Of a stretch of 64,000 bases of DNA, positions 23,031 through 40,634 are shown piece after piece. Each line of letters starts with the position of its first letter. Position 1 is the first letter of the stretch. Both the position numbers and the translations under genes were made by a program. Source of the DNA: a bacterium UBP2_UBA5202 (GTDB lineage Bacteria; Edwardsbacteria; AC1; EtOH8). The stretch covers positions 4-64,003 of the forward strand of contig DHVS01000038.1 in the NCBI GenBank assembly GCA_002412795.1. The letters are read 5' to 3'. The notes under the pieces are model-generated. The model worked only from the letters and a program-made list of their open reading frames with translations. It had not been told where the DNA came from and did no database searches.

Positions 23031-23112
23031 TCTTTTGCCACATAAAGCACATAAACCGTTATAACGTTACTACGTAATAACGTTAAACGTGGTGCTTAAA
23101 TTCGGTAAAGCC
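23031..23112 (+). promoter_or_regulatory. Shared upstream boxes: A (GCCACAnAAAGCACATAAA) and B (CTTAAATTCGGT), about 50 nt before the asrA-like start
   Basis: The same two boxes recur at 26301-26354, ahead of the first antiporter-like hydrogenase gene. Box B is 47-50 nt from the ATG in both places. Confidence 0.45.
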
Positions 23113-23152
23113 AATCAGCAATCATTTCAATCATACGTAAGGCAATAAAAAT

Positions 23153-24238: not shown

Positions 24239-24382
24239 CCTCACCCGCCCGGGCTGCCCGCGAAAAACGAGAAAAGGGACGAAAAATAATTCATGGTATC
24301 TACCGGGGTTGCCCACGAAAAACACTAAAAGGCACGGAACATTTAAATTTTACGATGGCTTGAAAAAACGCGGATAAAGTAT

Positions 24383-24763
24383 ATGAAGGTCGAATTATTA
24401 TATAAAGATGAGAGTTATGCTATAGTAGGAGCATGTTTCAATGTATATAAAAATATGGGGAGTGGGTTTTTAGAGCCAGTTAATCAGGAATGTTTGGAGA
24501 TTGAATTTGAAAGACAAAAAATTCCATTTGAGCCGCAGAAAGAACTTGCCTTAAAATATCTGGACAGAACATTAAAGCAAAAGTATAAGCCGGACTTTGT
24601 TTGTTACGGAAAAATAGTGGTGGAGATCAAAGCGGTAGAAAAACTCATTGATGATCACAGGTCACAAATGTTGAATTACCTTAACGCCACCGGTTTTAAA
24701 TTGGGCTTGCTGGTTAATTTCGGCCACCACCCCAGGATGGAAAACGAAAGATTTATCCTTTAA
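24383..24763 (+). CDS. GxxExxY protein (PD-(D/E)xK-like, PF13366 family)
   Basis: Motif IVGACFNVYKNMGSGFLEPVNQECLEIEF. The gene is AT-rich and inserted between the asrA-like and asrB-like genes. Confidence 0.8.
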   Translation: MKVELLYKDESYAIVGACFNVYKNMGSGFLEPVNQECLEIEFERQKIPFEPQKELALKYLDRTLKQKYKPDFVCYGKIVVEIKAVEKLIDDHRSQMLNYLNATGFKLGLLVNFGHHPRMENERFIL

Positions 24764-24833
24764 ATCAAACTCCCGCTAAAAATAGAAAAATATTTTTTCG
24801 TGTATTTAGTGGGCAAAACCAAAAGTAAGAGCT

Positions 24834-25670
24834 ATGAATCCAAATATCTATGTTCCTTATATAGCCGAGATCACCGACATCAAGCAGGAGACCGGCGACA
24901 CCCGGACCTACGATGTCAGGATAAAGAACAAGGAAGAGGCCAGGCTGTTCCGTTCCCGGCCCGGCCAGTTCGTGGAGGCCTCGGTGTTCGGGGCCGGCGA
25001 GGCCCCCTTTGGGCTGACCACATCGCCCAAAGAGCCCGGCGTGATGACCTTCACCGTGCGGGCCTGCGGCAAGGTGACCAACGCCCTGGCCGAAATGAAG
25101 AAGGGCGACGAGATAGGCATCAAAGGCCCCCTGGGCAACAGCTTTTTGGACAAGATAGATTCCAAGGGCAAGGACATCCTGGTGATCGGGGGCGGCATCG
25201 GACTTCCGCCGCTGCGCTCCATGATCGACCACATCTTCAACAACCGGGCCGACTACCGGGAGTTCACCATCCTCTACGGCGCCAGGACCCCGGCCGACCG
25301 GGTCTACAAATACCAGTTGAGCGATTGGGAAAATAAGACCGACCTCAAGCTGATCCAGACGGTGGACGTGGCCGACAAGGACTGGACCGGCAACGTGGGG
25401 GTGGTCACCACTTTGTTCCCCAAGCTCAAGCTGGACATACCCAACACCGTGGTCTACACTTGCGGCCCGCCAATAATGATCAAGTTCGTGATCATTGAGC
25501 TTTTAAAGCTGGGTCTGCCGGAGAAGCAGATAGTGTCCACCTTGGAGCGCTACATGAAGTGCGGGGTGGGGAAATGCGGGCACTGCTGCATCGGGAACAA
25601 GTACGTCTGCACCGACGGGCCGGTGTTCGATTATACCGAGATCAAGGGGCTGGCCGAAGAGGCTTTCTAA
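24834..25670 (+). CDS. FAD/NAD(P)-binding plus 2Fe-2S oxidoreductase of the AsrB / sulfhydrogenase gamma / PyrK-like family
   Basis: Ferredoxin-reductase-type FAD and NAD binding (RTYD/S, GGGIGLPP) and a C-terminal C..C..C cluster (CGVGKCGHCC). Confidence 0.8.
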   Translation: MNPNIYVPYIAEITDIKQETGDTRTYDVRIKNKEEARLFRSRPGQFVEASVFGAGEAPFGLTTSPKEPGVMTFTVRACGKVTNALAEMKKGDEIGIKGPLGNSFLDKIDSKGKDILVIGGGIGLPPLRSMIDHIFNNRADYREFTILYGARTPADRVYKYQLSDWENKTDLKLIQTVDVADKDWTGNVGVVTTLFPKLKLDIPNTVVYTCGPPIMIKFVIIELLKLGLPEKQIVSTLERYMKCGVGKCGHCCIGNKYVCTDGPVFDYTEIKGLAEEAF

Positions 25671-25730
25671 CGATAGGGATTACGATAGGCCATACAATGG
25701 GGATTCGATAGCGATACAATTGCAGTCTCA

Positions 25731-26228
25731 ATGTATAACCATCGTATAGCAAAGGAAGCTATCGTGCATGACCTGATAGAGTACCTGCGCTCCCTGAACC
25801 AGAGCTCCCTGATCATCGGGGTGGGGAATCCGTTGCGGGGCGACGACGGGTTCGGCCCGGCGCTGATCGCAGGGCTTAACGGGCGGACCGGCATCAGGCT
25901 GCTGGACGCCGAGGAGATCCCGGAAGCCTTCCTTGACAAAGCGGTGGAAATGGCCCCGGACAAACTGCTGATCGCCGACGCGGTGGCCCTGGGCGGCCTG
26001 CCGGGGGAAGCGGCCCTGATGCCGCCGGAATCGCTGGGGCAGAAGATAGCCATCTCCACCCACAACCTGCCGCTGTTGATGTTCATCAAGTTCTTTAAGG
26101 AGAAATGCCCGAACACCGAGGTGATGCTGCTGGGGGTCCAGCCCAAGGGCATAGAGTTCGGAAAAGAGCTGAGCCCGGAGATAAAGAAGACCATAGACAG
26201 TTTGGTCAATATTCTGACAGCCAAGTAA
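25731..26228 (+). CDS. hycI: Hydrogenase maturation endopeptidase (HycI/HyaD family)
   Basis: LIIGVGNPLRGDDGFGP motif. It matches the C-terminal extension on the large-subunit gene at 31383. Confidence 0.8.
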   Translation: MYNHRIAKEAIVHDLIEYLRSLNQSSLIIGVGNPLRGDDGFGPALIAGLNGRTGIRLLDAEEIPEAFLDKAVEMAPDKLLIADAVALGGLPGEAALMPPESLGQKIAISTHNLPLLMFIKFFKEKCPNTEVMLLGVQPKGIEFGKELSPEIKKTIDSLVNILTAK

Positions 26229-26300
26229 AATATAAAAACAGGTAACTGGTAAACTACTCGTTCAGAGCAAGTCGAACCACTCTGGTACCACCTTTATTCA

Positions 26301-26378
26301 GATTTGGCCACAGAAAGCACATAAAACACAAAAATACATCTCTTAAATTCGGTTTGTGACCTTTGTGCCTTTTGTGGC
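26301..26378 (+). promoter_or_regulatory. Second copy of box A / box B, followed by a CACAAAGGCAC-type inverted motif
   Basis: GCCACAGAAAGCACATAAAAC ... CTTAAATTCGGT ... tttgtgacctttgtgccttttgtgg. Confidence 0.45.
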
Positions 26379-26403
26379 GGAATAGTAACAAAAATAGGAA
26401 TAT

Positions 26404-27858
26404 ATGCTGTTACCCATTCTACTATTCACAATGTTGCTGCTGCCCTTTGCCGGGGCGCTGGTCTCGCAGTGGCTGCCGGAGAAGAGGCAGGACGGCTTTG
26501 CCGCCGCCATAGTCAGCCTGGTGACCGCGGCCTCGCTGTGGGCGGTGTTCCTGGGCCTGAACCAAAAGGTGGACATCAACATCCTGCCCTGGCCCTGGCT
26601 GCCCCAGGGAACCCGGGTGCTGGGAGTCCACCTGGACCCGCTGTCCATAGTGCTGCTTTTGGTGACCACCATCATCGGGCTGGCGGTGACCTTCTACGCC
26701 CGGGACTACCTGACCCCCCAGAACAGGTATCACCCGATAGAGGGCGGCAAGCGGCGCTTTTACCTGTGGCACCTGCTGTTCGTGGGAGCCATGGTGGGGG
26801 TGGCCCTGTCGCCCAACTTCCTCCAGATGTTCATCTTCTGGGAACTGACCACCATCTGCTCCTGGGCGCTGATCTCCTACTACCATAATAACGAGTCGCT
26901 GGAGGCCGGGTTCGAGGCCCTGATCAAGACCTTTTTCGGGGGCATCTTCTTCCTGATCGCCCTGATAGTGATCTTCGTCAACACCGGCAGCTTCGGCTTC
27001 GACGCCATCACCCTGCTGACCCCCCAGGCCAAGACCCTGGTCTTCATCCTGTTCCTGATAGCGGCTTGGGCCAAGTCTTCCCAGATAGTCTTCTTTGCCT
27101 GGCTGCCCAACGCCATGGCCGCTCCCACCCCGGTCTCCTGCTACCTGCACGCGGCCGCCATGGTCAAGGCCGGTGTATATTTGATGGCCCGGGTGGCCAT
27201 CTCCACCGTGGGCTTCTCCTACGGGCTGGGCCTGCTGGTGGCCGTGTTTGCGGTGTTCACCATGCTGGCCGCGCTGTTCCTGTTCTTCTTCCAGACCGAC
27301 CTTAAAAAGTTCCTGGCCTATTCCACCATCGCCCACCTGGGATACATCTTCCTGGGAATAGGGCTGGGGGTGATGGGCAGCTACTACGGCTACCAGGGGG
27401 CCATCCTGCACATCATCTGCCACGCCCCGGCCAAGGCCCTGCTGTTCATCTGCGTGGGGAACATAGCCTATGCCACCGGCACCCGCAACATGGACGAGCT
27501 GGGCGGCCTGACCAAGACCATGCCTTTGACCTCCATCGCCTTCATCGTGGGAACTTTAGGCGTCACCGGCATCGCGCCGCTGTCCTGCTACTGGTCAAAG
27601 CTGTTCCTGATGGAGGGCGTGATAGAGATGGGCGGCAAGACGGCCGTCTTCCTGATCATCCCCTTCGTGGCCGAGATCATCATCGCCTTCGCCTGGTATT
27701 TCTTCATCGCCCACAAGGTGTTTTTCGGCGAGGCCTCGCCCCGGGTGAACCAGGCCCTTAGACTGCCCATGAACACCAAGGTCATTTTGATAGCGCTGAT
27801 GGCGCTGACCGTGATCGCCCCGTTGGTGGGATTGCCGCTGGTGAAGTTGGTACGGTAA
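26404..27858 (+). CDS. Antiporter-like proton-translocating membrane subunit (NuoL/M/N / MrpD / HyfD-like)
   Basis: A 484-aa polytopic membrane protein with motifs of the complex I antiporter-like family (WLP.A...P.SA..HAA). Confidence 0.8.
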   Translation: MLLPILLFTMLLLPFAGALVSQWLPEKRQDGFAAAIVSLVTAASLWAVFLGLNQKVDINILPWPWLPQGTRVLGVHLDPLSIVLLLVTTIIGLAVTFYARDYLTPQNRYHPIEGGKRRFYLWHLLFVGAMVGVALSPNFLQMFIFWELTTICSWALISYYHNNESLEAGFEALIKTFFGGIFFLIALIVIFVNTGSFGFDAITLLTPQAKTLVFILFLIAAWAKSSQIVFFAWLPNAMAAPTPVSCYLHAAAMVKAGVYLMARVAISTVGFSYGLGLLVAVFAVFTMLAALFLFFFQTDLKKFLAYSTIAHLGYIFLGIGLGVMGSYYGYQGAILHIICHAPAKALLFICVGNIAYATGTRNMDELGGLTKTMPLTSIAFIVGTLGVTGIAPLSCYWSKLFLMEGVIEMGGKTAVFLIIPFVAEIIIAFAWYFFIAHKVFFGEASPRVNQALRLPMNTKVILIALMALTVIAPLVGLPLVKLVR

Positions 27859-27936
27859 GCCCGACCCCTCCCTTGATCCCTCCCCGCTGCGGAGAGGGAT
27901 AATATGAAGGTTGAAAAGGTTATAACCTGAGTTAGG

Positions 27937-28130
27937 AAGGCTGTAACTACGGTTAGCAAGGTCCTGACCAAGGCCGGAAGGATTCTAACCAAGGTTAGCA
28001 AGGTTATTACCTAGGTCGGAAGGGTTATTACCTAGGTCGGAAGGGTTATTACCTGGGCCGGAAGGGTTATTACCTAGGTCGGAAGGGTTCTTACCTGGGT
28101 TACAAGGGTTATTACCATAGTTAGCAGCTT
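27937..28130. repeat. Array of about nine degenerate 21-bp tandem repeats (consensus aagggttattacctaggtcgg)
   Basis: Directly visible head-to-tail units. They are preceded by related AAGGTTG(A/T)AAAGGTT motifs at 27908-27925. Confidence 0.85.
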
Positions 28131-28229
28131 CCGTTAGTGAAGCCGATACGATAAGGCACCTAATGGGACGCGGATTTATTTTTAGGGTAGGCACTTTCCT
28201 GGCAGGAGAGGGAAATTTAATGAGGGCGT

Positions 28230-28766
28230 ATGAAATATTTCAAAGTATTTTTATCGTTGGTCATTGTCACTACTGGTTGTGCCAGCACAACCCGGAGAGT
28301 GACCCCAGCAAAAATTGAGTTGACGGAAACATTAATTGTTGAACAGCCTAAGGAAAATAAAATAAGTCAAGAGGCTTTTATAATAAAGGTTTCTGAATTA
28401 AAAGGGAAAATAAGGATTTTAAACAGCAGGCAGTCCAATTCGCAAATATTATCAATAAATGACCAATTAGATTCTTTAGTCGTTAGCGAAGATCTGGCAC
28501 GTGATAGGTCAATCAATAAAGGATTGGGGTGGGGTCTTGTTGCCGGCATTTTACCAGCGCCTTTTATTTATGTGAAAGAAAACGGCACTGAATTTGGGAG
28601 TTTAATATCAGTGGTTTCCATATCGTCTTTGATTTGGTTAGGTACTACTACCGGTTGGTTGATTGGTCAGCATAAATGTAAATACATTCAAAAAAGGACT
28701 TATCAAAAACTCATAGACATAATTAACGAGCACAACAGTTTGGTTGGTTGGCAAAATAAACCATAA
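28230..28766 (+). CDS. AT-rich hypothetical lipoprotein
   Basis: Signal peptide with an IVTTGC lipobox. The gene is low-GC and sits between two hydrogenase membrane-subunit genes. Confidence 0.45.
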   Translation: MKYFKVFLSLVIVTTGCASTTRRVTPAKIELTETLIVEQPKENKISQEAFIIKVSELKGKIRILNSRQSNSQILSINDQLDSLVVSEDLARDRSINKGLGWGLVAGILPAPFIYVKENGTEFGSLISVVSISSLIWLGTTTGWLIGQHKCKYIQKRTYQKLIDIINEHNSLVGWQNKP

Positions 28767-28797
28767 AGCATCATAATTCGTAATTTCAGATAAACAT

Positions 28798-30846
28798 ATG
28801 AGCCTTCAATTCATCATACTCCTTTCCATGGGCTGGCTGCTGGCCGGCGCGGCCATTACCCTGGCCATGCCCTACTCCCGGCGGACCATCGGCTGGGTCT
28901 CGCTCTTCTTCCAGACCCTGGCGGCGGGCGGGTTCGGCTACGTGGCCATCCAGGTGCTGGCCCACGGGACCTTCAGCCTGGACAAGCCTCTGTTCTCGGT
29001 GGCGGGGCTGGGGGCGGCCTTCCTGCTTAAGGTGGATGCGCTGTCGGCCATCTTCCTGCTGGCCATCACCATCGTCTCCTGGGCGGCCGGGCTGTACTCG
29101 GTGCAGTACATCAAGCATTACAAGGAATCGCTGGGCCGCTACTACCCGCTGTTCCTGCTGTTCCTGCTGGGGATGTACGGGGTGGTGGTGGTGCGCGACC
29201 TGTTCTTCTTCATCGTCTTCTGGGAATTCATGACCCTGACCTCTTATGGATTAGTGGTGTTTGAATGGGGCAACAAGCAAAGTGTCAACGCCGGTTTCAA
29301 GTATTTTTTAATGACCCACATCGGCACCGCCGGCATCATCATCGCCGCCAACACGCTGTACCACTATTCGCAGTCCTTCGACTTTGAGGCCCTGCGCCCG
29401 GTGATGGCCCTGTTGAGCAGCGAGAACCCGGCCCTGCTACACACTATCTTACTATTGTTCTTCGTGGGCTTCGCCACCAAGGCCGGCGTCTTTCCCTTCG
29501 GCGACTGGCTGCCCGACGCCCACCCGGCGGCCCCGGCCCCGGTCAGCGCCATCCTTTCCGGGGTGATGATCAAGATGGGCATCTACGGGATCCTGCGGGT
29601 CTTCCTGGGCATGCTGCCGGTGTCGGAGTTCTCCCATACTTGGGGCTACATCTTCGTGATCTTCGGCACGGTCTCGCTATTCATCGGCACCATGACCGCC
29701 ATGTTCCAGCACGACGCCAAGCGGGTGCTGGCCTTTCACTCCATCGGCCAGAACGGATACATCATGCTGGCTTTAGGGGCCGGGCTGATGCTGACCCGGA
29801 TCTCGCCGGCTTTGGCCACGGTGGCCATCATAGCCGGGCTGTTCCATTTGATAAACCACGCCGCCTTCAAGTCGCTGCTGTTCCTTACCGCCGGCTCGCT
29901 GCAATATAAGACCGGCCACCGCGACCTGGACAAGATGGGGGGCCTGGCCAAATACATGCCATGGACCGCGGCCGTGGCCCTGATCGCCGCCATGGGCATC
30001 TCCGGCATCCCGCCCTTCAACGGCTTCGCCAGCAAGTGGCTGATCTACCAGTCCACCATCAACGCCGGGTTCAACACACCCATCCTGCTTTTATGCGGAC
30101 TGATCGCCCTGTTCACCAGCCTTTTGACCCTGGCCAGCGTGATGATCAAGTACATCGGTCTGGCCTTTCTGGGCCAGCGTCTGCCCAACAATAAAGAGGT
30201 CAACAGCGATGTGCCCCGCTCCATGATCTGGGCCCAGGGGATCCTGGCGGCGGTGGTCATCCTGGAGGGTGTGCTGGCCGGATTCATCGTCCGCGGCCTG
30301 TACACGGCCGCTTCCGGGCTTTTGACCCCGGATTACTGGCCGCAGTTCTCTTCGCTGTTCCATACCGTCAACCTTGGCCTCCGTCTTAATTTTGGCGAGG
30401 GGCTGGTGGGTTTCTATAATCCGTTGTTCCTGCTGATCATATTAACCGGGCTGGCTTTGATCGCGGTGCTGTTCTGGTGGTCGGGCGGGGCCAAGCGCAA
30501 GGTGGTCTCCGAACTGTGGTACTCAGGCGAACTGCAGTCCCCGGCCTCGGTGCGCTATTCCTCCTACAGCTATTTCAAGACCTTCAAGCAGAATTTCAAC
30601 ATCCGGATCGGCAAGTACACCCAGGAGGGAGTCTATCCCAAATGGCCGACCATCAAGTTCAAACGGCCGTTCAAGATCAAATATCTGCTGGACGTGGACA
30701 GCTGGCTGTACCGGCCCCTGGCTTTCATTGGTCACAAGGCGCTGGAGATCTTCGCCGGAACCCACAGCGGGTTCCCCCAATGGTATCTGCTGTGGATGGT
30801 GATCGGCGCGGCCGCGGCCATGCTGGTGATGTTCTTGGTGCGCTAA
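28798..30846 (+). CDS. Large antiporter-like membrane subunit (HyfB / NuoL / MnhA-like)
   Basis: A 682-aa protein of the NuoL/HyfB family (conserved WLPDAHPAAPAPVSA region). Confidence 0.85.
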   Translation: MSLQFIILLSMGWLLAGAAITLAMPYSRRTIGWVSLFFQTLAAGGFGYVAIQVLAHGTFSLDKPLFSVAGLGAAFLLKVDALSAIFLLAITIVSWAAGLYSVQYIKHYKESLGRYYPLFLLFLLGMYGVVVVRDLFFFIVFWEFMTLTSYGLVVFEWGNKQSVNAGFKYFLMTHIGTAGIIIAANTLYHYSQSFDFEALRPVMALLSSENPALLHTILLLFFVGFATKAGVFPFGDWLPDAHPAAPAPVSAILSGVMIKMGIYGILRVFLGMLPVSEFSHTWGYIFVIFGTVSLFIGTMTAMFQHDAKRVLAFHSIGQNGYIMLALGAGLMLTRISPALATVAIIAGLFHLINHAAFKSLLFLTAGSLQYKTGHRDLDKMGGLAKYMPWTAAVALIAAMGISGIPPFNGFASKWLIYQSTINAGFNTPILLLCGLIALFTSLLTLASVMIKYIGLAFLGQRLPNNKEVNSDVPRSMIWAQGILAAVVILEGVLAGFIVRGLYTAASGLLTPDYWPQFSSLFHTVNLGLRLNFGEGLVGFYNPLFLLIILTGLALIAVLFWWSGGAKRKVVSELWYSGELQSPASVRYSSYSYFKTFKQNFNIRIGKYTQEGVYPKWPTIKFKRPFKIKYLLDVDSWLYRPLAFIGHKALEIFAGTHSGFPQWYLLWMVIGAAAAMLVMFLVR

Positions 30847-30947
30847 ACCGGGGAAACCGGTTGAAAAGGTTGGACGAACATACGGTTGAAGATGTTGAAA
30901 AAGTTGATGTGTCGTTCTGATGAAAATGGTGAGGTGATTGAAAAAAC

Positions 30948-31367
30948 ATGACGGTTAAGAGATTTGAGGATCTGAAAATCTGGCAACAGGCCAAAGAGCT
31001 GGCCAACTTGATTTATGATTTAACCGGAACAAACGCTTTCAAAGGCGACAGGAGTCTTACAGATCAATCCCGCCGGGCGGCAGTTTCGGTAATGGCCAAT
31101 ATTGCCGAGGGATTTGAGAGAGGCAGCAACAAAGAATTCATTCAGTTTTTGTTTATTGCAAAAGGTTCGTGCGGAGAACTGAGAAGCCACCTGATATTAG
31201 CTCAAGACCGCTGTTATATAACCCCGGTACAACATACGCAAGCCAGAGAAATGGCTTTAGGGATTTCCACGATGGTGTATAACTTCATCACATATTTACA
31301 AAACACTAAAGTTAAAGGCAAGAGGTGCCAAACCTCTTCAACAATTTCAACAAAAGCAACATCTTAA
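30948..31367 (+). CDS. Four-helix-bundle protein (IVS/Avd-like), copy 2
   Basis: The same family signature as copy 1 (IWQQA...RAAVSVMANIAEGFERGS). Confidence 0.8.
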   Translation: MTVKRFEDLKIWQQAKELANLIYDLTGTNAFKGDRSLTDQSRRAAVSVMANIAEGFERGSNKEFIQFLFIAKGSCGELRSHLILAQDRCYITPVQHTQAREMALGISTMVYNFITYLQNTKVKGKRCQTSSTISTKATS

Positions 31368-31382
31368 ACATTCAGGGATACA

Positions 31383-33062
31383 ATGACCAAACAGGAAATC
31401 CTTTCTTTACTAAAGGCCAAGCTGGGCGCCGGATTCATCGCCCACACCGAGCCTATCCCCGACCAGCTGTGGGTGGAGGTCAAGCCCCAGGCCTCGGTCC
31501 AGGCCGTGGAACTGCTGCACCGCACCACCAAGGCCCGCTATTTAGTGAGCGTGGGCTCGGACGAGCGGGAGCTTAAAAAGCGCTTCGGGGTCTACCACCT
31601 GTTCAGCTTTGACAAGGAGCACTTCTTCGTCACCATCGACGTCTCGGCCGATCCCCACCAGCCGGTGCTTCCCTCCATCACCAATGTCATCGCCGGGGCC
31701 AACTGGTCGGAGCGGGAGATCCGCGACCTTTTGGGAGTGCAGTTCGAGGGCCATCCCGATCCCCGGCGCCTGGTGCTGGCCGATGACTGGCCGAACGAGG
31801 TCTATCCGCTGCGCCGAGATTTTGACTACAGTTCCAAGCCGCCCTCCAACCCGGAGAACGCCTATCCCTTCAAGGACAATCCGCCCAACACCACGGTGGT
31901 GGCCATGGGCCCGTATTTTCCGGTGTTCGAGGAAGCCACCTATTTCCGGCTGTACGTCGAGGGCGAGAAGGTGGTGGACGTGGACTACCGCGGCTTTTAC
32001 GCCCACCGGGGGATAGAAAAACTGGGCGACGCCTCGCTGACCTACAACCAGATACCATTCATCGCCGAGCGGATCTGCGGCATCTGCGGCTTTGTGCACA
32101 ACGTCTCCTTCTGCAAATTAGTGGAGCACGCGGCCGGGATCAAGGTCCCGCGCCGGGCCGACTATATAAGAACCATCATGCTGGAGCTGGAGCGGATCCA
32201 TTCCCACGCCCTGTGGCTGGGGGTGGCCGGGCACATCATCGGCTTTGACACCGTGCTGATGCAGACCTGGCGGATGCGGGAGCCCATCATGTGGCTGTGC
32301 GAAAAGCTGACCGGAAACCGCAAGACCTACGGCATGAACCTGATCGGCGGGGTGCGCCGGGACATCACCAAAGCCCAGGTGCCCGAGGTCCGCAAAAAGA
32401 TCGACGCCATGGACAAGGAATGGCAGGCGGTGCTGGACGCCGTCAAGGACGACACCACATTAAGAATGAGATTAGAGAAGGTGGGGATCCTCAACCGCGA
32501 GCAAAGCCACGAGTGGGCGGCGGTGGGCCCGGTGGCCCGGGCGGCCGACATCGACATGGACTCCCGCAAGGACCATCCCTACTGCGCCTACGACGCGGTG
32601 GATTTCAAGGTGATCACCGCCGACACCAACGACGTCTGGGGCCGGACCGTGGTCCGGATCCTGGAGACCATAGAATCGTTCAAGATCGTCCGCCAGTGCC
32701 TGGACGCTTTAATGGAACTGCCGGAGGGCGACATCATCACCGAGATCCGGGACGAGATCCCGGCCGGCCGGATAGCCATTTCCGCTGTCGAGGCGCCCCG
32801 GGGCGAGGATGTCCATTTCCTTTTAACCGGCGGAGACAACCGGCCCTACCGCTGGCGGGTGCGGTGCCCAACCTACCCCAATCTGCCCACCGTGCAGGTG
32901 ATGGTCAAGGGCGAACAGGTGGCCGACGTCCCGATCATCCTGGGCTCCATAGATCCCTGCTTCAGCTGCACCGAGCGGATGGAGGTGGCGGACGTCAACA
33001 CCGGGAAGATCAGGGTTTACTCACAGGAAGAACTGTTTAACTGGACAAAACGCAAGGCTTGA
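31383..33062 (+). CDS. hycE: Group-4 [NiFe]-hydrogenase large subunit fused to a NuoC-like domain (HycE/HyfG-type)
   Basis: The N-terminus resembles the NuoC 30-kDa subunit. The NiFe ligand motifs RICGICGFVH and DPCFSCTER are present. A C-terminal extension follows the second motif, consistent with HycI processing. Confidence 0.9.
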   Translation: MTKQEILSLLKAKLGAGFIAHTEPIPDQLWVEVKPQASVQAVELLHRTTKARYLVSVGSDERELKKRFGVYHLFSFDKEHFFVTIDVSADPHQPVLPSITNVIAGANWSEREIRDLLGVQFEGHPDPRRLVLADDWPNEVYPLRRDFDYSSKPPSNPENAYPFKDNPPNTTVVAMGPYFPVFEEATYFRLYVEGEKVVDVDYRGFYAHRGIEKLGDASLTYNQIPFIAERICGICGFVHNVSFCKLVEHAAGIKVPRRADYIRTIMLELERIHSHALWLGVAGHIIGFDTVLMQTWRMREPIMWLCEKLTGNRKTYGMNLIGGVRRDITKAQVPEVRKKIDAMDKEWQAVLDAVKDDTTLRMRLEKVGILNREQSHEWAAVGPVARAADIDMDSRKDHPYCAYDAVDFKVITADTNDVWGRTVVRILETIESFKIVRQCLDALMELPEGDIITEIRDEIPAGRIAISAVEAPRGEDVHFLLTGGDNRPYRWRVRCPTYPNLPTVQVMVKGEQVADVPIILGSIDPCFSCTERMEVADVNTGKIRVYSQEELFNWTKRKA

Positions 33063-33287
33063 TGGAAATGTCCGGCAGGAAGCAACGATGACGATGGAGA
33101 AGCAATAATATAAGCAGGGCAACGTTGGAGAGGTCCAACAGGGAGGCAGGCAACGATAAACGTTCCATCGTTGAGCGGCTTCCAAAGCAAGACTTCTCAA
33201 ACATTGCAATACCGGAAATATGGCATCTCCATCAAATAAAGTTAAGAAGAACAGATCTTTTTATAAATAATACAAGTTAAAAGCGAT

Positions 33288-34187
33288 ATGCAGTCATTAG
33301 TAAAAATGATCATCATGGTGGCGCTGCTGCTCTTCGTCTCGCCGCTGCTGGAAGGCATCCTGCGCAAGTTCAAGGCGCTGGTGCATTCCCGGATCGGGCC
33401 GCCGTTGTTGCAGCCGTACTGGGACATCCTTAAGCTGCTGGGCAAGGACGACGTCCGCTCGCCCCACTCCTTTCTGGGGCCGCTGCCGGCCTTTCTGGGC
33501 CTGGCCGCCATCCTGGCCGCCGGCCTGCTGGTGCCGCTGGGAAACAGCGCGCCCTTCGCCAGCGGGGACCTGTTCCTGTTCCTCTACCTGATCAGCTTCG
33601 CCTCGGTCTGCGTGATGCTGGCCGGCATGGACTCAGGCTCGCCCTACGGATTTTTGGGCACCGCCCGGGAGATGATGACCTCTTTCGTGGTGGAACCGGT
33701 GCTGTTCATCGCCCTGATCACCGTGGCCATCAAGACCCACAACTTCCGTTTCTCCGACATGGCGGCCTACCAGCAGATCTCCGGGGCCTCGCTTTCCACC
33801 ATCATCTCCGGGCTGGCCCTGTTCCTGGGGATCCAGGCACAGCTTTCCAAACTGCCGTTCGACATCCCCGAGGCCGAGGGCGAGCTGATGGGCGGCACCT
33901 TTGCCGAGATGTCCGGCCCGACCTTTGCCCTGTACCGCTGGGGCTTCATCGCCAAACAGGTGATATTCTCCATGATCCTGGCCCAGCTGTTCTTCCCCTG
34001 GCCGTTGGGGTTGGTTGGCCTGTGGGCGGTGGTGGCCCAGATAGCCAAAGTGATCCTGATCGTGGTGCTGGTGGGGCTGATAGACGCGGTCAACCCCCGG
34101 CTACGGATAGACCAGGCGCTCGTTTATTACTTCGGGGTTATTCTGATGGCGATCGTCGGTTTGGTCTTTGCGCTGGTCGGAGCCTGA
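33288..34187 (+). CDS. hycD: NuoH/HycD-like membrane subunit (formate hydrogenlyase subunit 4 family)
   Basis: A 299-aa, 8-TM protein with the complex I subunit-1 family N-terminus (...EGILRKFKALVHSRIGP). Confidence 0.85.
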   Translation: MQSLVKMIIMVALLLFVSPLLEGILRKFKALVHSRIGPPLLQPYWDILKLLGKDDVRSPHSFLGPLPAFLGLAAILAAGLLVPLGNSAPFASGDLFLFLYLISFASVCVMLAGMDSGSPYGFLGTAREMMTSFVVEPVLFIALITVAIKTHNFRFSDMAAYQQISGASLSTIISGLALFLGIQAQLSKLPFDIPEAEGELMGGTFAEMSGPTFALYRWGFIAKQVIFSMILAQLFFPWPLGLVGLWAVVAQIAKVILIVVLVGLIDAVNPRLRIDQALVYYFGVILMAIVGLVFALVGA

Positions 34188-34243
34188 GGCATTTACAATT
34201 CGGGATTTACCATTTGGAAACTTTCCGGTGGAGAGAAGAGTAA

Positions 34244-34657
34244 ATGGCGACTTTTAAGAAATTTGAAGAAGTGGATATTTGGATAAAAGCGCGTGAATTG
34301 ACCAAGCGGATTTACGAAGCCTCTCGCAAAGGGGCTTTTGCCAAGGATTATTCTTTGGGCGACCAGATGAGGCGGGCATCGGTGTCGATCATGTCAAATA
34401 TTGCCGAGGGTTTTAATCGTGGCGGGAACAAAGAGCTTGTCCAATATTTGGCAATCGCCAAAGGATCTGCGGCAGAGATACAAAGCCAGTTATATGTCGC
34501 ACTTGACCAACAGTATATACCCAAAGAAGTATTTAACGATTTGTACAATTTAACAGACCAAATTGCAGCCGGAATATTTTCTTTTATAATTTATCTCAAT
34601 AAAAGCAATATCAAAGGGATAAAATATAAATACGCCCAAATTCCAAATGGTAAATAA
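34244..34657 (+). CDS. Four-helix-bundle protein (IVS/Avd-like), copy 3
   Basis: Family signature (DIWIKA...[19 protein letters not shown]). Confidence 0.8.
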
Positions 34658-34679
34658 ATAGCAGGAAAGAATTGCTAAC

Positions 34680-35135
34680 ATGATCATATCCAAATTGAAA
34701 GAGGCATTGATCTGCTTCAAGAACCTGAGGGTCACCTTTCCCTATCCCCTGAAGCGGAACATCGAGGCCCTTCCGGTGGAGGGCTTCCGGGGCAAGTTGA
34801 CCATAGACGTGTCCAAGTGCATCGGCTGCGCCGGCTGCGCCAACGTCTGCCCATCGCGGCTGATCATCGTCACCGACAAGAAGGCGGTGCGCCGGCTGGA
34901 CTTTTACCTGGAGCGCTGCACTTACTGCGGGCGCTGCGCCGACGTCTGCCCGGAGAAGGCCATCACCATGACCCAGGAGTTCGAGACCGCCACCAACGAC
35001 GTCCACAACGACATGCACATCAGCGCCGAGGTCTACATGGGAACCTGCCAGCGCTGCGGAAGATGTTTCGAGACCCAGACCATCCTGGACAAGATGATGA
35101 CGGTGGGGTTCCGGAACAACCAAACTACCGAATAA
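34680..35135 (+). CDS. hycF: 2x[4Fe-4S] ferredoxin subunit (NuoI/HycF-like)
   Basis: CIGCAGCANVCP and CTYCGRCADVCP motifs in a 151-aa protein. Confidence 0.85.
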   Translation: MIISKLKEALICFKNLRVTFPYPLKRNIEALPVEGFRGKLTIDVSKCIGCAGCANVCPSRLIIVTDKKAVRRLDFYLERCTYCGRCADVCPEKAITMTQEFETATNDVHNDMHISAEVYMGTCQRCGRCFETQTILDKMMTVGFRNNQTTE

Positions 35136-35145
35136 ACCACAAAGA

Positions 35146-35202
35146 CACAAAGGCACTATTTTCGTAATCGTAAATTATTTTGTGTCTTAGTGCCTTAGTG
35201 GT
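35146..35202. promoter_or_regulatory. Inverted-repeat motif ACACAAAGGCACT...AGTGCCTTAG in the hycF / hyfE-like gap
   Basis: It recurs at 40635-40685, and in degenerate form at 26353-26378. Confidence 0.4.
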
Positions 35203-35221
35203 GAAAATAATAAGGAAGAAT

Positions 35222-35884
35222 ATGGGTGATCTAATCACAACCTTAATGGTCTGCCACTTCATAGCCTCGGTGGGCGCGGCCGAGATCAGGAATCTGAAGA
35301 CCTCCACCATTTTCCTGATGCTGCAGTCCCTGCTGCTGGCCCTGATCATCGCGGCCTTTGCCGGGCGCAGCCAGAACTACTCGCTTTACTGGTGGGTGGC
35401 CCTGACCGTGGTCACCAAGGTCATCATCATACCCGGGCTGCTGTGGGTCCACATCAAGAAGACCCAGGTGATGGAGATAAAACCGCTGGTCAGCTTTGTG
35501 GTCTCGTTCATAGTGCTGGCCATCTTCCTGGTGGCCTTCTACCAGATGGTCCACACCTACGCCGGCTTCGTGGCCCCCACCGCGGCGGCGGCGGTGGAAC
35601 CGGCCCGCTCGGCCCTGGCCCTGTCATTCACCATCTTCGTGCTGGGCCTTTACGTGCTGGTGATCCACCGGGACGCGGTCAAGATCATCATCGGCCTCCA
35701 TTTAATAGAGAACGGCGTCCACCTGGCCCTGGTGACCTTGGTTCCCCAACTGCCGGTATCCACGGTCTTCGGGATTGTATCCAATGTGGTGTTTGCCGCG
35801 GTGATGCTGCTTTGGCTGACGGATAATATTTACAAGGCCTTCGGGTCCTCCGACACCATGAAACTTTCCAGCCTTAAGGGCTGA
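35222..35884 (+). CDS. HyfE-like small membrane subunit of group-4 hydrogenase (NuoK-like fold)
   Basis: A 220-aa, 6-7 TM protein placed between hycF and another antiporter-like subunit. The start is at MGDL, with an AGGAAG RBS. Confidence 0.6.
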   Translation: MGDLITTLMVCHFIASVGAAEIRNLKTSTIFLMLQSLLLALIIAAFAGRSQNYSLYWWVALTVVTKVIIIPGLLWVHIKKTQVMEIKPLVSFVVSFIVLAIFLVAFYQMVHTYAGFVAPTAAAAVEPARSALALSFTIFVLGLYVLVIHRDAVKIIIGLHLIENGVHLALVTLVPQLPVSTVFGIVSNVVFAAVMLLWLTDNIYKAFGSSDTMKLSSLKG

Positions 35885-35953
35885 TCCGGTTCCCGCTGGA
35901 CGGTCCGGCCTGGGTCAATAAAGAACGTTTAACGTTTGAAAGGAGCCCGGCAA

Positions 35954-36430
35954 ATGACAGACAAAAATATCCTTAAAAACATCTCGCTGTTTTCCGATTT
36001 TTCAGATAAGGAGATCGAGAAGATGGCGGCCCTGTTTTCCGAACGGTCATTCAAGGAAAACGAAGTGCTGATCCCGGAGCAGTCCGAAAACCTCGAGCTG
36101 ATGATCCTTTTGGAGGGCAGCGTGGCGGTGGAGGTGGGACTGAGCCTTTCGGCCAGCGCCGAAAAACTGATGCTGACCTCCGAGGATTCCCCCGGCCGGA
36201 TCATCGAATGGTCCTCGGCCATCGACACCACCAAGAGCGGCGGCACCGCCTCGGCCCGGGCCCTAAAGCCCACCAAAGTGCTGGTGGCCGACGGGCAGGA
36301 ACTGGTAAACCTCTTCAAGTCGGAGAAGGAGCTGGGCTACAAGCTGATGCATAGAATCCTGCTGGTTATAGCCTCCCGGCTGAAGGACACCAGGCTGCAG
36401 CTGATCAGCATGGCGGCCCAGTGCCGGTAA
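35954..36430 (+). CDS. Cyclic-nucleotide-binding (cNMP) domain protein without a DNA-binding domain
   Basis: The Crp/PKA-like effector-domain pattern (FSDFSDKEIEKMAALFSERSFKENEVL... GE.AL) is present and there is no HTH. The start is MTDKN, preceded by an AAAGGAG RBS. Confidence 0.6.
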   Translation: MTDKNILKNISLFSDFSDKEIEKMAALFSERSFKENEVLIPEQSENLELMILLEGSVAVEVGLSLSASAEKLMLTSEDSPGRIIEWSSAIDTTKSGGTASARALKPTKVLVADGQELVNLFKSEKELGYKLMHRILLVIASRLKDTRLQLISMAAQCR

Positions 36431-36597
36431 CTGAGAACGTCATCGCGAGAAGGGCAGGCAATGTGACGAATGAAGCGATCTAACTGTAAACAAGTCAGAT
36501 TACTTCGTTTGTCCGGCAAGTTGTCATACTCGCAATGACATGGTGCAATGATAATAGTTTTGAAAACAGTACAAAAGCAATAAAATAGAGATTTCAT

Positions 36598-38124
36598 ATG
36601 GTCGTTACTATCAATCCCACCGCGGTCTCGATCCTGCCGTTCCTGGTGTTCATGGTTCCCCTGTTCTTCGGGGGCCTGATCTTCGCCCTGGGACGCTACG
36701 GCAAGTTCTTCCGGCAGGGTCTGGCCCTGATCGGGATCTTCGCCACCTTGGCCATCTCGATCATGATGACCGGACGGGTGCTGGGCGGCGAGGTGCTGAC
36801 CTGGTGGAACAATAACTTCTACATCGACGGCTTGGCCACCCTGATGGAACTGGCGGCCAGCGGGCTGGGGGCCATAGTGGTGGTCTACTCCATCTACTAT
36901 TTCTCGGAGAAGACCGAGGCGGCCGAGGCCCACCCCTACACCAGCATGACCAGTTACTATGGGCAGATCATGGTCTTTCTGGGGCTGATGAACTGGACCT
37001 GCGCCACCAACAACATCATCATGATGTACGTCTCGCTGGAGTTCACCACCCTGGCCACGGTCTTTTTGGTGACCTTCCACTGGAACAAGCAGGCACTGGA
37101 AGCCGGTTACAAATATCTTCTATTGGTGACTGTGGGGGTGATCTTCGCCCTGCTGGGCTCGGTCCTTTTATACGCCGCGGCCATTCCCTACCTGCCGGTG
37201 TCGAGGGTCCTGCTTTTGACCGAGCTGGGGACCATTGCCACCAAGATACCCACCAACATAGTGCTGCTGGCCTCGGCCTTCTTAGTCGTCGGTTTCGGCA
37301 CCAAGGCCGGCCTGGTGCCCTTTCACGCCTGGCTGCCGGATGCCCACGCCGAGGCCCCGGCCCCGGTAAGCGCCCTGCTCTCCGGCATCGTCATCAAAGT
37401 GGGGGCCTACGCCCTGGCCAGGACCATCTCGGTCTTTGCCCCGCACTACGGCACCATCCCGCTGTTCATCGCCATTCTCTGTTCCATCTCCATGATCGTG
37501 GGAATGATGATGGCCATGATCCAGGACGACCTGAAGCGGATGCTGGCCTACTCCTCGGTCGCCCAGATCGCCTACGTGATCGAGGGCCTGGGAATGGGCA
37601 CCTACCTGGGGATCTACGGCGGCCTGATGCACCTGCTGAACCACTCCATCGTCAAGGGCCTGCTGTTCCTGGCGGTGGGGGCGCTGATCTACGCCACCGG
37701 CAAGCGCAAGGTGTCCGAGTTGTCAAAGATCAAATTGAACATGCCCATCACCGCCTTCGCCTTTTTCGTGGGAATATTCGCCCTATCCGGGATGCCGCCC
37801 TTCAACGGCTTCGTCTCAAAATTCACCCTGTTTTTGGCGGTGGGCCAGGCCAATCTTTTGTGGGCGGCCATCATCGGCATCATCACCTCGCTGTTCACCC
37901 TGGTTTGTTTCTTTAGGGCCGGATACAAGATATTCTGGTCGCCGAAAGAAAGTTATTCCGTCGGGGCTGAAACAACCACCGCCGCCGAGGTCCCGGCCGG
38001 GATGTGGGTGGGCATGGTGATCCTGGCCGTGGCGGCCATAGCGTTGGGGGTATTTCCCCAGATCGTGCACCCGCTTTTGGACAGCGCCACCAAGTGCATA
38101 CTGAGGATATTGATCGGGGGCTGA
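36598..38124 (+). CDS. Antiporter-like membrane subunit (HyfF / NuoN / MrpD-like)
   Basis: A 508-aa protein of the NuoM/N family (WLPDAHAEAPAPVSALLSG). Confidence 0.8.
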   Translation: MVVTINPTAVSILPFLVFMVPLFFGGLIFALGRYGKFFRQGLALIGIFATLAISIMMTGRVLGGEVLTWWNNNFYIDGLATLMELAASGLGAIVVVYSIYYFSEKTEAAEAHPYTSMTSYYGQIMVFLGLMNWTCATNNIIMMYVSLEFTTLATVFLVTFHWNKQALEAGYKYLLLVTVGVIFALLGSVLLYAAAIPYLPVSRVLLLTELGTIATKIPTNIVLLASAFLVVGFGTKAGLVPFHAWLPDAHAEAPAPVSALLSGIVIKVGAYALARTISVFAPHYGTIPLFIAILCSISMIVGMMMAMIQDDLKRMLAYSSVAQIAYVIEGLGMGTYLGIYGGLMHLLNHSIVKGLLFLAVGALIYATGKRKVSELSKIKLNMPITAFAFFVGIFALSGMPPFNGFVSKFTLFLAVGQANLLWAAIIGIITSLFTLVCFFRAGYKIFWSPKESYSVGAETTTAAEVPAGMWVGMVILAVAAIALGVFPQIVHPLLDSATKCILRILIGG

Positions 38125-38153
38125 AACTTAAACTGTTTGAACCGAGAAATGAC

Positions 38154-38510
38154 ATGAATAAGACAAAATATAACCAGTCATTTTGGAGTGCTTTAGATAC
38201 ATTGCTTAAATCATGCGAAGTTATTGTTGACCGACCGAAAGGAGCTCAACACCCAAGATACCCTGGTTGTATTTATCCTCTTGATTATGGTTATTTAAAA
38301 GGAACACTATCCTTGGACAATTCAGGAATTGATATTTGGAAAGGCAGCAACAATAAGAACAGTATAAATGGAATACTCTGCACTATTGATTTGCATAAAA
38401 AGGATTCGGAGATAAAGATAATGATTGATTGCACTCAGGATGAAAAAAGTAAAATATTAGATTTTCACAATGAGAATAATATGTATGCAATTTTAATTGA
38501 TCGCGAATAA
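38154..38510 (+). CDS. AT-rich hypothetical protein (119 aa)
   Basis: The ORF is low-GC relative to its surroundings. The start is taken at MNKTKYNQ; the ORF-track N-terminal extension overlaps the upstream gene. Confidence 0.4.
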   Translation: MNKTKYNQSFWSALDTLLKSCEVIVDRPKGAQHPRYPGCIYPLDYGYLKGTLSLDNSGIDIWKGSNNKNSINGILCTIDLHKKDSEIKIMIDCTQDEKSKILDFHNENNMYAILIDRE

Positions 38511-38568
38511 CCCTATTTTAATCACAGATAGACGTTTAAAAATAAACATATACCGGATAAATAATGAA

Positions 38569-38700
38569 GAAATCTTTGACATTGATCTTATGTACGGCAT
38601 TGGCGATTCCCTTTGCCGTAACTTCCTGCGGGCCGGGCGGCCAGCAGATCAAGATCGGGGTGGCCGGGGGCAATAAGCGCCAAATTTAAACCGGGGAGAA
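38569..38700 (+). pseudogene. Truncated diverged copy of the 5' end of the downstream LivJ-like SBP gene
   Basis: MKKSLTLILCTALAIPFAVTSCGPGGQQIKIGVAG... The 45 nt at 38625-38669 are nearly identical to 39508-39552. The frame stops after GGNKRQI. Confidence 0.5.
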
Positions 38701-38705
38701 ATATC

Positions 38706-39427: not shown

Positions 39428-39443
39428 AATCAGGCGCATTAAA

Positions 39444-40604: not shown

Positions 40605-40634
40605 CCACCCTTCGAGAAACTCAGGGTAAACTCC

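Follow-up and report, generated by a model that had tools for sequence, protein, structure and literature searches.

A cassette like the 23S rRNA intervening sequences, with inverted short-repeat arms, in a hydrogenase operon spacer of Candidatus Edwardsbacteria

How does a small gene lodge between two genes of a hydrogenase operon, and what are the repeats at its ends? The question is raised by a 64,000-nucleotide stretch of DNA from the bacterium UBP2_UBA5202 (assembly GCA_002412795.1, contig DHVS01000038.1, positions 4 to 64,003; hereafter the window, GC 0.56). From about 23153 to 41204 its + strand carries a group-4 Hyf/Hyc-type [NiFe] hydrogenase operon, in which an initial annotation had placed a four-helix-bundle (FHB) open reading frame (ORF) between the HyfB-like gene and the large-subunit gene. 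That ORF, here called FHB2, is indeed found at 30948–31367, between the genes at 28798–30846 and the ATG at 31383. The insert that holds it is an intervening sequence (IVS)-like cassette of the S23p type, set in an operon spacer and bounded by arms like those of the short tandemly repeated repetitive (STRR) hairpins of cyanobacteria. By analogy with the rRNA elements, the FHB2 arms probably pair into a stem of the RNase III type. The fuller proposal, of an IVS-type mini-cassette lodged in an operon mRNA and looped out as its arms pair into such a stem, we regard as evenly balanced between true and false.

The FHB2 gene and its repeat arms

The layout of the cassette and its two neighbours is as follows.

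28798–30846, + strand: gene for the HyfB-like antiporter subunit, the host gene upstream of FHB2 (Pfam Proton_antipo_M, 2.3e-61, and Proton_antipo_N)
30846–30862, + strand: stem-loop AACCGG-GGAAA-CCGGTT just past the hyfB stop codon, present in the minimum-free-energy (MFE) and centroid structures of a 551-nt fold and in mini-constructs
30858–30907, + strand: 5′ arm, a period-9 array, CGGTTGAAAAGGTTG ... CGGTTGAAGAT GTTGAAAAA GTTGATG
30928–30937, + strand: putative Shine-Dalgarno-like element GGTGAGGTGA, read from the sequence, 10 nt ahead of the FHB2 start codon and within the loop
30948–31367, + strand: FHB2, gene for a four-helix-bundle protein (23S_rRNA_IVP / TIGR02436) of 139 amino acids; stop codon at 31365–31367
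31320–31338, + strand: hairpin AAGAGGT-GCCAA-ACCTCTT in the ORF tail, predicted in the full fold and in mini-constructs
31331–31369, + strand: 3′ arm, AACCTCTTC AACAATTTC AACAAAAGC AACATCTTAAAC, an inverted GTTGAAnnn array
31374–31385, + strand: hyfG ribosome-binding site AGGGA (31374–31378) and ATG (31383–31385), directly 3′ of the right arm
31383–33062, + strand: fused large-subunit gene hyfG, matching Complex1_30kDa, Complex1_49kDa and NiFeSe_Hases

FHB2 has the same orientation as hyfB and hyfG; the hyfB stop codon is at 30844–30846, and hyfG starts 14 nt past the right arm. The insert is low in GC, 0.39–0.47 (about 0.43) against ~0.60 for hyfB and hyfG. The view that this is a discrete low-GC insert, its four-helix-bundle gene bracketed by one tandem motif in inverted orientation, is supported.

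Judged by its matches, the FHB2 product is a member of the S23p / 23S_rRNA_IVP family and is related to Avd, the pentameric nucleic-acid-binding protein of diversity-generating retroelements (DGRs). It scores 113.6 bits against PF05635 (6.6e-33; cut-off 33.8) and 109.3 bits against TIGR02436 (1.1e-31; cut-off 24). We know of no nuclease activity for FHB proteins. The motif GxxRxxxSxxxNxxE, described as a conserved surface motif of the four-helix-bundle protein (PMC3936711), reads QSRRAAVSVMANIAEG in FHB2. Sequence comparison found a single relative of solved structure, Xanthomonas campestris XCC0516 (PDB 2GSC, E = 4.9e-12), which two papers cite as a homopentamer of four-helix bundles (PMC4990558, PMC3936711), and proteins of the family have been noted within cas loci (PMC3936711). 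The Pfam/TIGRFAM match ends at about residue 111–118 and the KGKR motif at about residue 126; the final ~12 codons (QTSSTISTKATS) are the TTCAAC array in translation.

Both flank sequences quoted in the initial annotation are present where it had put them. Its literal motif, GTTGAARNGTTGAA, is not found even when one mismatch is allowed; the true unit is the period-9 GTTGAAnnn, in three to four copies on the + strand at 30858–30907 and in three to four inverted copies at 31331–31369. On the + strand GTTGAA stands at 30860, 30885 and 30894, followed by a degenerate GTTGAT at 30903, and Tandem Repeats Finder reports period 9 at 30885–30907. The minus-strand copies are at 31337–31342 and 31346–31351, adjoined by a degenerate GTTGCT. 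Unit by unit, the left arm reads GTTGAAAAG GTTGGACGA ... GTTGAAGAT GTTGAAAAA GTTGATGTG on the + strand and the right arm GTTGCTTTT GTTGAAATT GTTGAAGAG GTT on the − strand. The right arm overlaps the final 12 codons of FHB2 and its stop codon (31365–31367).

The hexamer is clustered at both ends of the gene. GTTGAA occurs 38 times on the two strands of the window, with three copies in the 101-nt left spacer (Poisson P ~4e-6) and two, inverted, in the 63-nt right region (P ~2e-4). When the left flank is aligned with the reverse complement of the right flank, the best local score is 22, a value equalled by 27 of 1000 dinucleotide shuffles (p ~0.03). An inverted-repeat search found six overlapping inverted pairs between the arms (I1–I6, 12–21 nt, 81–92 % complementary), and therefore several pairing registers are possible. 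The MFE and centroid structures of the 551-nt fold both close the cassette through 30885–30897 : 31357–31369. The FHB2 copy taken alone is borderline statistically; it is the orthologues and the family-wide pattern that make it convincing.

Orthologous operons, sister cassettes and the wider family

The related operons come from UBP2 / ‘Candidatus Edwardsbacteria’ metagenome-assembled genomes (MAGs), and 11 orthologous loci were compared for junction occupancy. Four-helix-bundle genes lie at varying junctions among them, over four hyf junctions.

hyfB–hyfG: occupied in the window, L008, L009 and L013 (frameshifted), and also in the metagenome loci L031 and L033; degenerate in L011 and L012; unrelated spacers of 57–86 nt in L014, L015 and L020
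hyfG–hyfC: occupied in L008–L012 and L014; unoccupied in the window and L013
hyfC–hyfH: occupied in every locus covering the junction, with two copies in L016; none empty
hyfH–hyfE: a distant family member in L009 and L011; remaining loci unoccupied

All six FHB2 orthologues at hyfB–hyfG (the window, L031, L009, L013, L033 and L008) have GTTnAA arrays upstream and TTnAAC arrays downstream, and in L008 the variant ACGTTC/GAACGT is present in both arms. Divergence is faster in the arms than in the coding sequence (DNA identity 62–80 % vs 66–90 %), and the arm alignment score is higher than that of FHB2 in L031 (31) and L009 (33). In a matrix of all 23 operon cassettes, an arm's own partner is in most cases its best or second-best match when set against all the non-cognate arms.

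The gene itself is functional and has been resident for long. Between the window and L009, identity at codon positions 1/2/3 is 96/96/78 % for FHB2, and these values indicate strong purifying selection on the protein. The corresponding values for hyfG are 85–90/91–95/66–76 %, so that FHB2 and its neighbour are similar in synonymous divergence, and this speaks for joint vertical descent over recent transfer. Recent lateral transfer between the two lineages had been raised by the DNA identity of FHB2, 90 % vs 72–87 % in the flanks, and was rejected on the third-codon identity, 78 % vs 66–76 % in hyfG. The exact FHB2 protein is encoded on 12 contigs, all of them one and the same locus.

The flanking proteins of locus L007 are 98–99 % identical to those of the window, yet its hyfB–hyfG spacer is merely 141 nt long and is without the FHB2 gene body and left arm. 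The spacer retains a ~65 %-identical ORF tail and TTCAAC array, and ahead of these stands a CGGATT-type array unrelated to them. The L007 site has thus diverged after a deletion or replacement and is not virgin. The initial annotation had put the cassette boundary inside the ORF tail. The right arm does overlap the 3′ end of the ORF; we count that arm as part of the cassette and not as its boundary, because L007 has lost the gene body and still keeps the diverged right arm and ORF tail. No target-site duplication could be called when the empty sites of L007, L014, L015 and L020 were compared.

Two of these short spacers hold a left-type array with no matching inverted partner, CACGGATTT CCCTGGATT GATACGGATT at 1466–1604 of L007 and ACAGATTTCC ACAGATCCGA at 3283–3368 of L015. 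Their composition suggests that both are chimeric remnants of two adjacent cassettes.

Other cargo is found at hyfB–hyfG. Outer-membrane protein (OMP) β-barrel genes occur there in L009, L010 and L013, with GTTnAA arrays ahead of each gene, and in L012 a HEPN and nucleotidyltransferase pair is inserted at 7047–7738, accompanied by a second copy (three mismatches) of the final ~33 nt of hyfB. The 98 %-identical relative L011 carries at 5836–8001 a partial hyfG duplicate (residues 1–438) upstream of the full gene, and its FHB2 remnant is heavily indel-ridden; an error of long-read assembly could account for the duplicate and the remnant, or they could reflect a true rearrangement.

The window holds two paralogues of FHB2 found by tblastn, FHB3 at 34244–34657 on the + strand (46 % identity) and FHB1 at 11683–12054 on the − strand (36 %), as well as a low-GC GxxExxY gene at 24383–24763 within the hydrogenase operon and two hairpins that hold no gene.

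34205–34655, + strand: FHB3 cassette, with a perfect 15-nt inverted repeat ATTTACCATTTGGAA at 34205–34219 and 34641–34655
11643–12112, − strand: FHB1 cassette, with heptamer arms, AGCGnnn four times upstream and CGCTnnn five times downstream
24309–24819, + strand: GxxExxY (PDDEXK_3) cassette, ORF 24383–24763, with CAC..AAA-type inverted arms at 24309–24337 and 24793–24819
26308–26377, + strand: gene-less hairpin in the HycI–HyfD spacer, CACAnAAAn four times / TTTGTGnCC three times; score equalled by 9 of 1000 shuffles
35137–35201, + strand: gene-less hairpin in the HyfH–HyfE spacer, CCACAAAGACACAAAGGCACTA / TTTTGTGTCTTAGTGCCTTAGTGG (units also written CCACAAAGACACAAAGGCAC / GTGTCTTAGTGCCTTAGTGG); score equalled by 4 of 1000 shuffles

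The suggestion that the three FHB copies be aligned with their flanks did not yield common arms: FHB1 and FHB3 are without the GTTGAA motif, and each copy has inverted arms of its own (GTTGAAnnn vs ATTTACCATTTGGAA vs AGCGnnn/CGCTnnn). For the arms of FHB3, FHB1 and GxxExxY none of 1000 shuffles equalled the alignment score, and the RNAduplex z values are −3.7, −4.1 and −2.3, respectively. FHB1 separates the gene pair nfeD (12104–13381) and SPFH/Band-7 (10846–11607), and its AGCG heptamer arm overlaps the nfeD stop codon. The window has a gene-less hairpin at the HyfH–HyfE junction, where L009 and L011 have the distant FHB gene. The HyfG–HyfC junction, the site of an FHB cassette in six orthologous operons, is in the window a 225-nt low-GC spacer (33063–33287) with ACTTCTCAAAC and GGCATCTCC, similar to the arms of the distant FHB cassettes L009:12131 and L011:12184. 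This spacer is possibly a cassette remnant.

The same build recurs beyond Edwardsbacteria. A metagenome scan gave 80 loci with FHB2 relatives (43–94 % identity), and in the 66 with sufficient flank the inverted-arm score averages 29 for cognate and 17 for non-cognate arms. In L059, (GAGTTCRTW)x8 stands upstream and (WAYGAACTC)x10 downstream; in L055, (GGTTCAA)x5 stands on either side, inverted. A census was then made of 85 distinct PF05635/TIGR02436 cassettes, from Edwardsbacteria operons and diverse metagenomes, with a 99th-percentile shuffle threshold. Inverted short-tandem-repeat flanks are significant in 55 of the 85, and the classes are as follows.

Inverted flanks only: 52 of 85
Inverted and direct flanks: 3 of 85
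Direct flanks only, A/C-rich period-9 arrays on both sides: 11 of 85 (13 %)
Neither significant, the window’s FHB2 among them: 19 of 85

The geometry was taken from the 57 cassettes whose inverted arms align with a score of 24 or more, chosen separately from the census and including four plasmid copies. The median arm is 31 nt long with 26 matches, and the 5′ arms are G-rich and C-poor (552 G vs 162 C). The 5′ arm ends ~19 nt ahead of the start codon, leaving space for a ribosome-binding site. The 3′ arm starts ~394 nt past the start codon and therefore often overlaps the final codons, which explains the odd C-terminal tail of FHB2. The repeat period (9, 7 or 8) is equal between arms in 24 of 24 strong cases, and both neighbours are co-oriented in 19 of the 23 evaluable loci.

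Plasmid copies from Nostoc, Anabaena and Riemerella, cultured organisms with annotated genomes, were examined apart from the census and show the same build. The flanks are GGGAAAA / TTTTCCC in Nostoc sp. ATCC 53789, GGGTGTA / TACACCC in N. punctiforme, GGTGACA / TGTCACC in Anabaena sp. 90, where the copy lies between cas6 and cas4, and GGTTCAAG / CTTGAACC in Riemerella. Among GxxExxY genes, that of Bacteroides finegoldii is flanked by inverted CACAGAGGA / TCCTCTGTG, those of Bernardetia and Treponema have the same inverted-array build, and the Prevotella copy has direct flanks. The recurrence of this build around the FHB2 family in many phyla suggests a widespread, poorly described operon-lodging mini-cassette.

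The direct layout has details of its own. In L076, L083, L084, L090, L098, L100, L105 and L109 the FHB gene lies between long direct A/C-rich period-9 arrays (such as AAACCAGAG and AACCCAACA; up to 14 copies). These eight loci have more such arrays between neighbouring genes. L098 has one G/T-rich array and then two A/C-rich arrays, which are alternative pairing partners.

Readings of the arms and comparison with known systems

We suggest that the cassette works as follows. FHB2 would be co-transcribed with hyfB and hyfG. The inverted arrays of GTTGAAnnn would form the arms of a long imperfect hairpin, with the gene in its loop; a scan for promoters and terminators in and around FHB2 gave no sites above chance. 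Pairing of the arms in the polycistronic transcript would loop out the cassette and would bring the hyfB stop codon (30844–30846) and the hyfG ribosome-binding site (31374–31378) to one stem base. The stem, as double-stranded RNA, may be cleavable by RNase III, as is the case for the homologous Coxiella 23S rRNA cassette, whose 5′ arm likewise opens with tandem heptamers. The cassette could then reside in, enter or leave operon junctions without breaking the operon, and its arrays would turn over fast by slippage with both arms retaining one unit.

Several observations weigh against this proposal. The RNAduplex energy of the FHB2 flanks is no better than that of shuffles (z = +0.46), because the flanks are purine/T-rich and A/C-rich and their shuffled versions pair as well. 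The initial annotation had suggested folding the region, and the MFE and centroid structures do close the cassette; the energy of the whole 551-nt fold is again no better than that of shuffles (z = −0.33). It had also named flank similarity no better than shuffled controls as a ground for abandoning the idea, and this is what the folding-energy tests give, unlike the motif and alignment tests. As terminal inverted repeats, then, the FHB2 flanks have arms and a closing helix, a fold and duplex energy at shuffle level, and an alignment p of ~0.03; the orthologues and the family at large lend them strong support. The longest unbroken helix between the arms is just ~13 bp. The hairpin at 31320–31338, which has the same form in L031, L009, L013 and L033, competes with long-range pairing for part of the right arm. 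Over the family, the 11 census cassettes with direct arrays only and the 19 with neither array significant point the same way. G·U-type mismatches in the sense RNA (56) are not in excess of A·C-type mismatches (66; p = 0.42, from 285 mismatches in 46 arm alignments), and the two arms do not mirror each other in how their unit variants are ordered (seven long-array cassettes, mean z = −0.36). It follows from the unmirrored order that complementarity is kept at the level of the unit consensus, so that any register can pair.

The unremarkable energies of FHB2 and its arm score of 22, under the strict 99th-percentile census cut-off of 23.8, are also what would be seen if its leader and tail were simple-sequence tracts independent of each other, one purine/T-rich and the other A/C-rich, that have no joint function and resemble each other only incidentally. 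We hold this to be very improbable. GTTGAA is clustered on opposite strands at both ends, the arms are kept in six orthologues and are stronger in L031 (31) and L009 (33), and the same architecture is present in 55 of the 85 family members; the comparative data already disfavour it.

The lack of a G·U excess and of mirrored order weakens a strict RNA-helix model, and protein-binding arrays or DNA-level roles stay live. They are kept alive because complementarity holds at the unit level and because 13 % of cassettes have direct flanks.

In the first of these readings the arrays are not chiefly pairing partners but candidate recognition sites for a multimer, most naturally the ring-shaped FHB pentamer. 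Much as TRAP and Hfq bind short repeats at even spacing, the pentamer would recognise the flanks of its own gene at the RNA or DNA level, and the binding would serve autoregulation, protection or mobilisation. This we consider rather unlikely. It would account for complementarity at the level of the unit and not of the register, for the lack of a G·U excess, for a period (7, 8 or 9) always shared by the left and right arrays, for the direct orientation in 11 of the 85 cassettes and for the typical copy number of 3–10; furthermore, proteins of the family fold into a homopentamer with positive charge (PDB 2GSC; bioRxiv 2023.10.23.563531), and Avd touches RNA stem-loops in the DGR ribonucleoprotein (bioRxiv 2023.10.23.563531). 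Against it, like arrays flank unrelated GxxExxY and OMP β-barrel genes (L009, L013), or no gene, and the units are wholly different between the cassettes of one genome while the protein surface motif GxxRxxxSxxxNxxE is constant (PMC3936711).

The arms may instead act at the DNA level, in the insertion, excision or exchange of cassettes at operon junctions. They would be recombination substrates, or the terminal inverted repeats of a mobile element of the foldback or miniature inverted-repeat transposable element (MITE) type, and RNA pairing would be incidental. We give this the same prospects as the protein-site reading. Presence, absence and replacement at one junction among relatives fit it, as do the other cargoes at hyfB–hyfG (the OMP β-barrel genes, and the HEPN and nucleotidyltransferase pair of L012 with its duplicated ~33-nt hyfB 3′ end), the low GC of the insert, the lack of a wobble bias by strand, and the mismatched left (CGGATT-type) and right (TTCAAC-type) arrays of L007, as after a deletion across two cassettes. 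However, there is no second copy of FHB2, all 12 encoding contigs being one locus; the window paralogues are just 36–46 % identical; no transposase, integrase or reverse transcriptase is nearby, the nearest item being a truncated Phage_int_SAM_4 ORF 31 kb off; and a target-site duplication is not definable. The third-codon divergence from L009, which is like that of hyfG, points to long vertical residence, and old orthologues keep matching arms where relic terminal inverted repeats ought to decay. The pairing, protein-site and DNA-level readings are not mutually exclusive.

What known system does the cassette resemble? The IVS of Coxiella burnetii has an S23p ORF, a 28-bp terminal stem and a GC content below that of the genome, with three to four GACAGAT heptamers upstream of the ORF, in a strain-dependent number; its excision by RNase III has been shown experimentally, the 5′ cut falling at the start of the first repeat, and its ORF is reported to be decaying and unexpressed (PMC4990558). 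FHB2 is like the 23S rRNA IVSs of Leptospira and C. burnetii in having a PF05635 protein and an ORF between inverted repeats, here in the loop of a putative stem, and like the Coxiella IVS in having short tandem repeats upstream of the ORF and a GC lower than that of the host. Unlike the 23S rRNA IVSs, its host is a protein-coding operon spacer and not helix 9, 25 or 45 of 23S rRNA, and unlike the Coxiella IVS it has a 9-nt unit and a protein under purifying selection. No rRNA match was found in the window at 22900–38700 or in the flanks of the 20 strongest related metagenome loci.

The arms have their own parallels. Cyanobacterial STRR heptamer hairpins lie in operon spacers such as hupS-hupL, and a role in transcript stability or translational coupling has been proposed (PMC2670836). 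Xanthomonas genomes have 70–75 paired convergent GGGAATC arrays each, with positions kept across species and fast turnover in length (PMC4692102). The FHB2 arms are like both in being intra-operon, in their inverted short tandem units and in fast arm turnover at a conserved position, and the gene-less hairpins at 26308–26377 and 35137–35201 fit the STRR description. Taking an STRR as two inverted arrays of one 6–9-nt unit in an intra-operon spacer, FHB2 belongs, with period 9 in both arms. In contrast, the STRR and Xanthomonas reports describe arrays without cargo and unlinked to FHB or GxxExxY genes, whereas here and in the Nostoc and Anabaena plasmids the arrays bracket such genes; FHB-type arrays have periods of 8–9 besides 7, and the host of FHB2 is of a different phylum, UBP2 / Ca. 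Edwardsbacteria.

FHB is also like Avd of the DGRs, a homologous four-helix-bundle pentamer, and FHB1 matches NF033474 at 1.5e-10, below the equivalog cut-off. Avd binds a structured RNA whose segments upstream and downstream of the template pair together (bioRxiv 2023.10.23.563531). DGR membership was rejected: no reverse transcriptase domain is present in the scanned window ORFs, no template/variable repeat pair was seen, and the Avd model has no match in FHB2.

Integron cassettes share with FHB2 a promoter-less, small and co-oriented build, imperfect inverted repeats anchored by GTT.../...AAC, and a cargo that varies among relatives. An integron attC is one compact site 3′ of the ORF with a GTTRRRY core, whereas the FHB2 arms flank the ORF, ~425 nt apart; unlike integrons, there is no intI, attI or Pc, and FHB cassettes are scattered over operon junctions and not in one array. 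Integron membership was rejected, as FHB2 has one arm on each side of its ORF, hyfG follows directly on the right arm, and no integrase catalytic domain is present among 50 scanned window ORFs. Membership in an insertion sequence or MITE family was likewise rejected, given a single locus on 12 contigs, paralogues that are 36–46 % identical and no transposase in the scanned window ORFs. The C-terminal end of a 211-amino-acid ORF at 62600–63235 on the − strand matches just the SAM-like domain with which phage-type integrases begin (PF13495, 7.5e-15). The ORF has no catalytic domain because the aconitase gene starts at 62471, and by its domain content it is a truncated or stand-alone recombinase fragment.

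The Correia elements of Neisseria are co-transcribed MITEs whose terminal inverted repeats are RNase III substrates in mRNA; unlike FHB cassettes, they are non-coding and have many near-identical copies. Correia elements and the free-standing homing-endonuclease genes that lie between conserved phage genes are small selfish inserts in the spacers of co-directional genes, present or absent among close relatives, and the homing-endonuclease genes have no flanking inverted arrays. No known RNA family or defence system was matched in Rfam or PADLOC. A link to HEPN proteins was considered and set aside: the four-helix-bundle family is not mentioned in the HEPN survey paper.

It is tempting to join these parallels, and we do so tentatively, as a proposal less probable than the pairing of the arms itself. 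FHB (S23p/Avd-like) and GxxExxY (PD-(D/E)XK) genes would be cargo of one undescribed class of hairpin-bounded mini-cassettes, of which the 23S rRNA IVS would be the best-known landing site and the cyanobacterial STRR hairpins and Xanthomonas heptamer arrays the empty forms. Their self-renewing arms would serve as an insulator, acted on by RNase III and/or recognised by FHB, and as a recombination handle for colonising, persisting and swapping at junctions across Cyanobacteria, Bacteroidota, candidate phyla of the Fibrobacterota–Chlorobiota–Bacteroidota (FCB) group and others. An incomplete literature search, which gives absence of evidence only, found no paper linking the arrays to four-helix-bundle or GxxExxY genes or calling these hairpin-bounded operon cassettes.

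Three objects have each gone about 30 years without a function: the ORF-bearing 23S rRNA IVSs, the operon hairpins of cyanobacteria and Xanthomonas, and the hypothetical proteins called ‘four helix bundle’ and ‘GxxExxY’, which are very abundant. The data join these puzzles in one arrangement, a small gene in a hairpin loop with inverted arms of 6–9-nt units between co-directional genes. If the link holds, it offers a testable model for how selfish small genes persist in essential operons (hydrogenase, nfeD-SPFH, cas) without polar damage, and it directs attention to cis-elements outside DGRs to which an Avd-like pentamer might bind; it would also account for many spurious low-complexity ORF tails and ‘NSTNSTN’-type hypothetical proteins. 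Recognising the arms is of practical use as well, as they are a source of assembly and annotation artefacts in MAGs.

Other features of the operon

The operon genes, all on the + strand, are as follows.

Genes for an AsrA/sulfhydrogenase-beta-like protein, an FAD/NAD reductase, the HycI protease and three antiporter-like subunits
Genes for the fused 30 kDa + 49 kDa large subunit (31383–33062), the HyfC, HyfH and HyfE homologues and a cyclic-nucleotide (cNMP)-binding protein
40722–41204: gene for the 20 kDa small subunit, further downstream

Other spacers of the operon also have repeats. Upstream of the first operon gene, at 23040–23100, a CACATAAAG/CACATAAAC pair is followed by a period-8 CGTTATAA array (4.4 copies) that holds internal palindromes (AACGTT). 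The spacer between HyfD and the gene for a 178-amino-acid protein is occupied at 27916–28116 by a 21/42-nt tandem repeat (~9.6 / 3.5 copies, GGTCGGAAGGGTTATTACCTA-like). Ahead of this repeat, at 27909–27921, stands GGTTGAAAAGGTT, identical to 30859–30871 of the FHB2 left arm. The 178-amino-acid protein is encoded by a low-GC ORF at 28230–28766, has a lipoprotein-like N-terminus and has no match in Pfam, NCBIfam or PADLOC. In the spacer between the cNMP-binding protein and HyfF genes, at 36428–36600, an inverted repeat GTCATCGCGAG ... CTCGCAATGAC encloses a loop of ~90 nt. Finally, a nucleotidyltransferase and HEPN pair lies at 38706–39427, between hyfF and the small-subunit gene (40722–41204).

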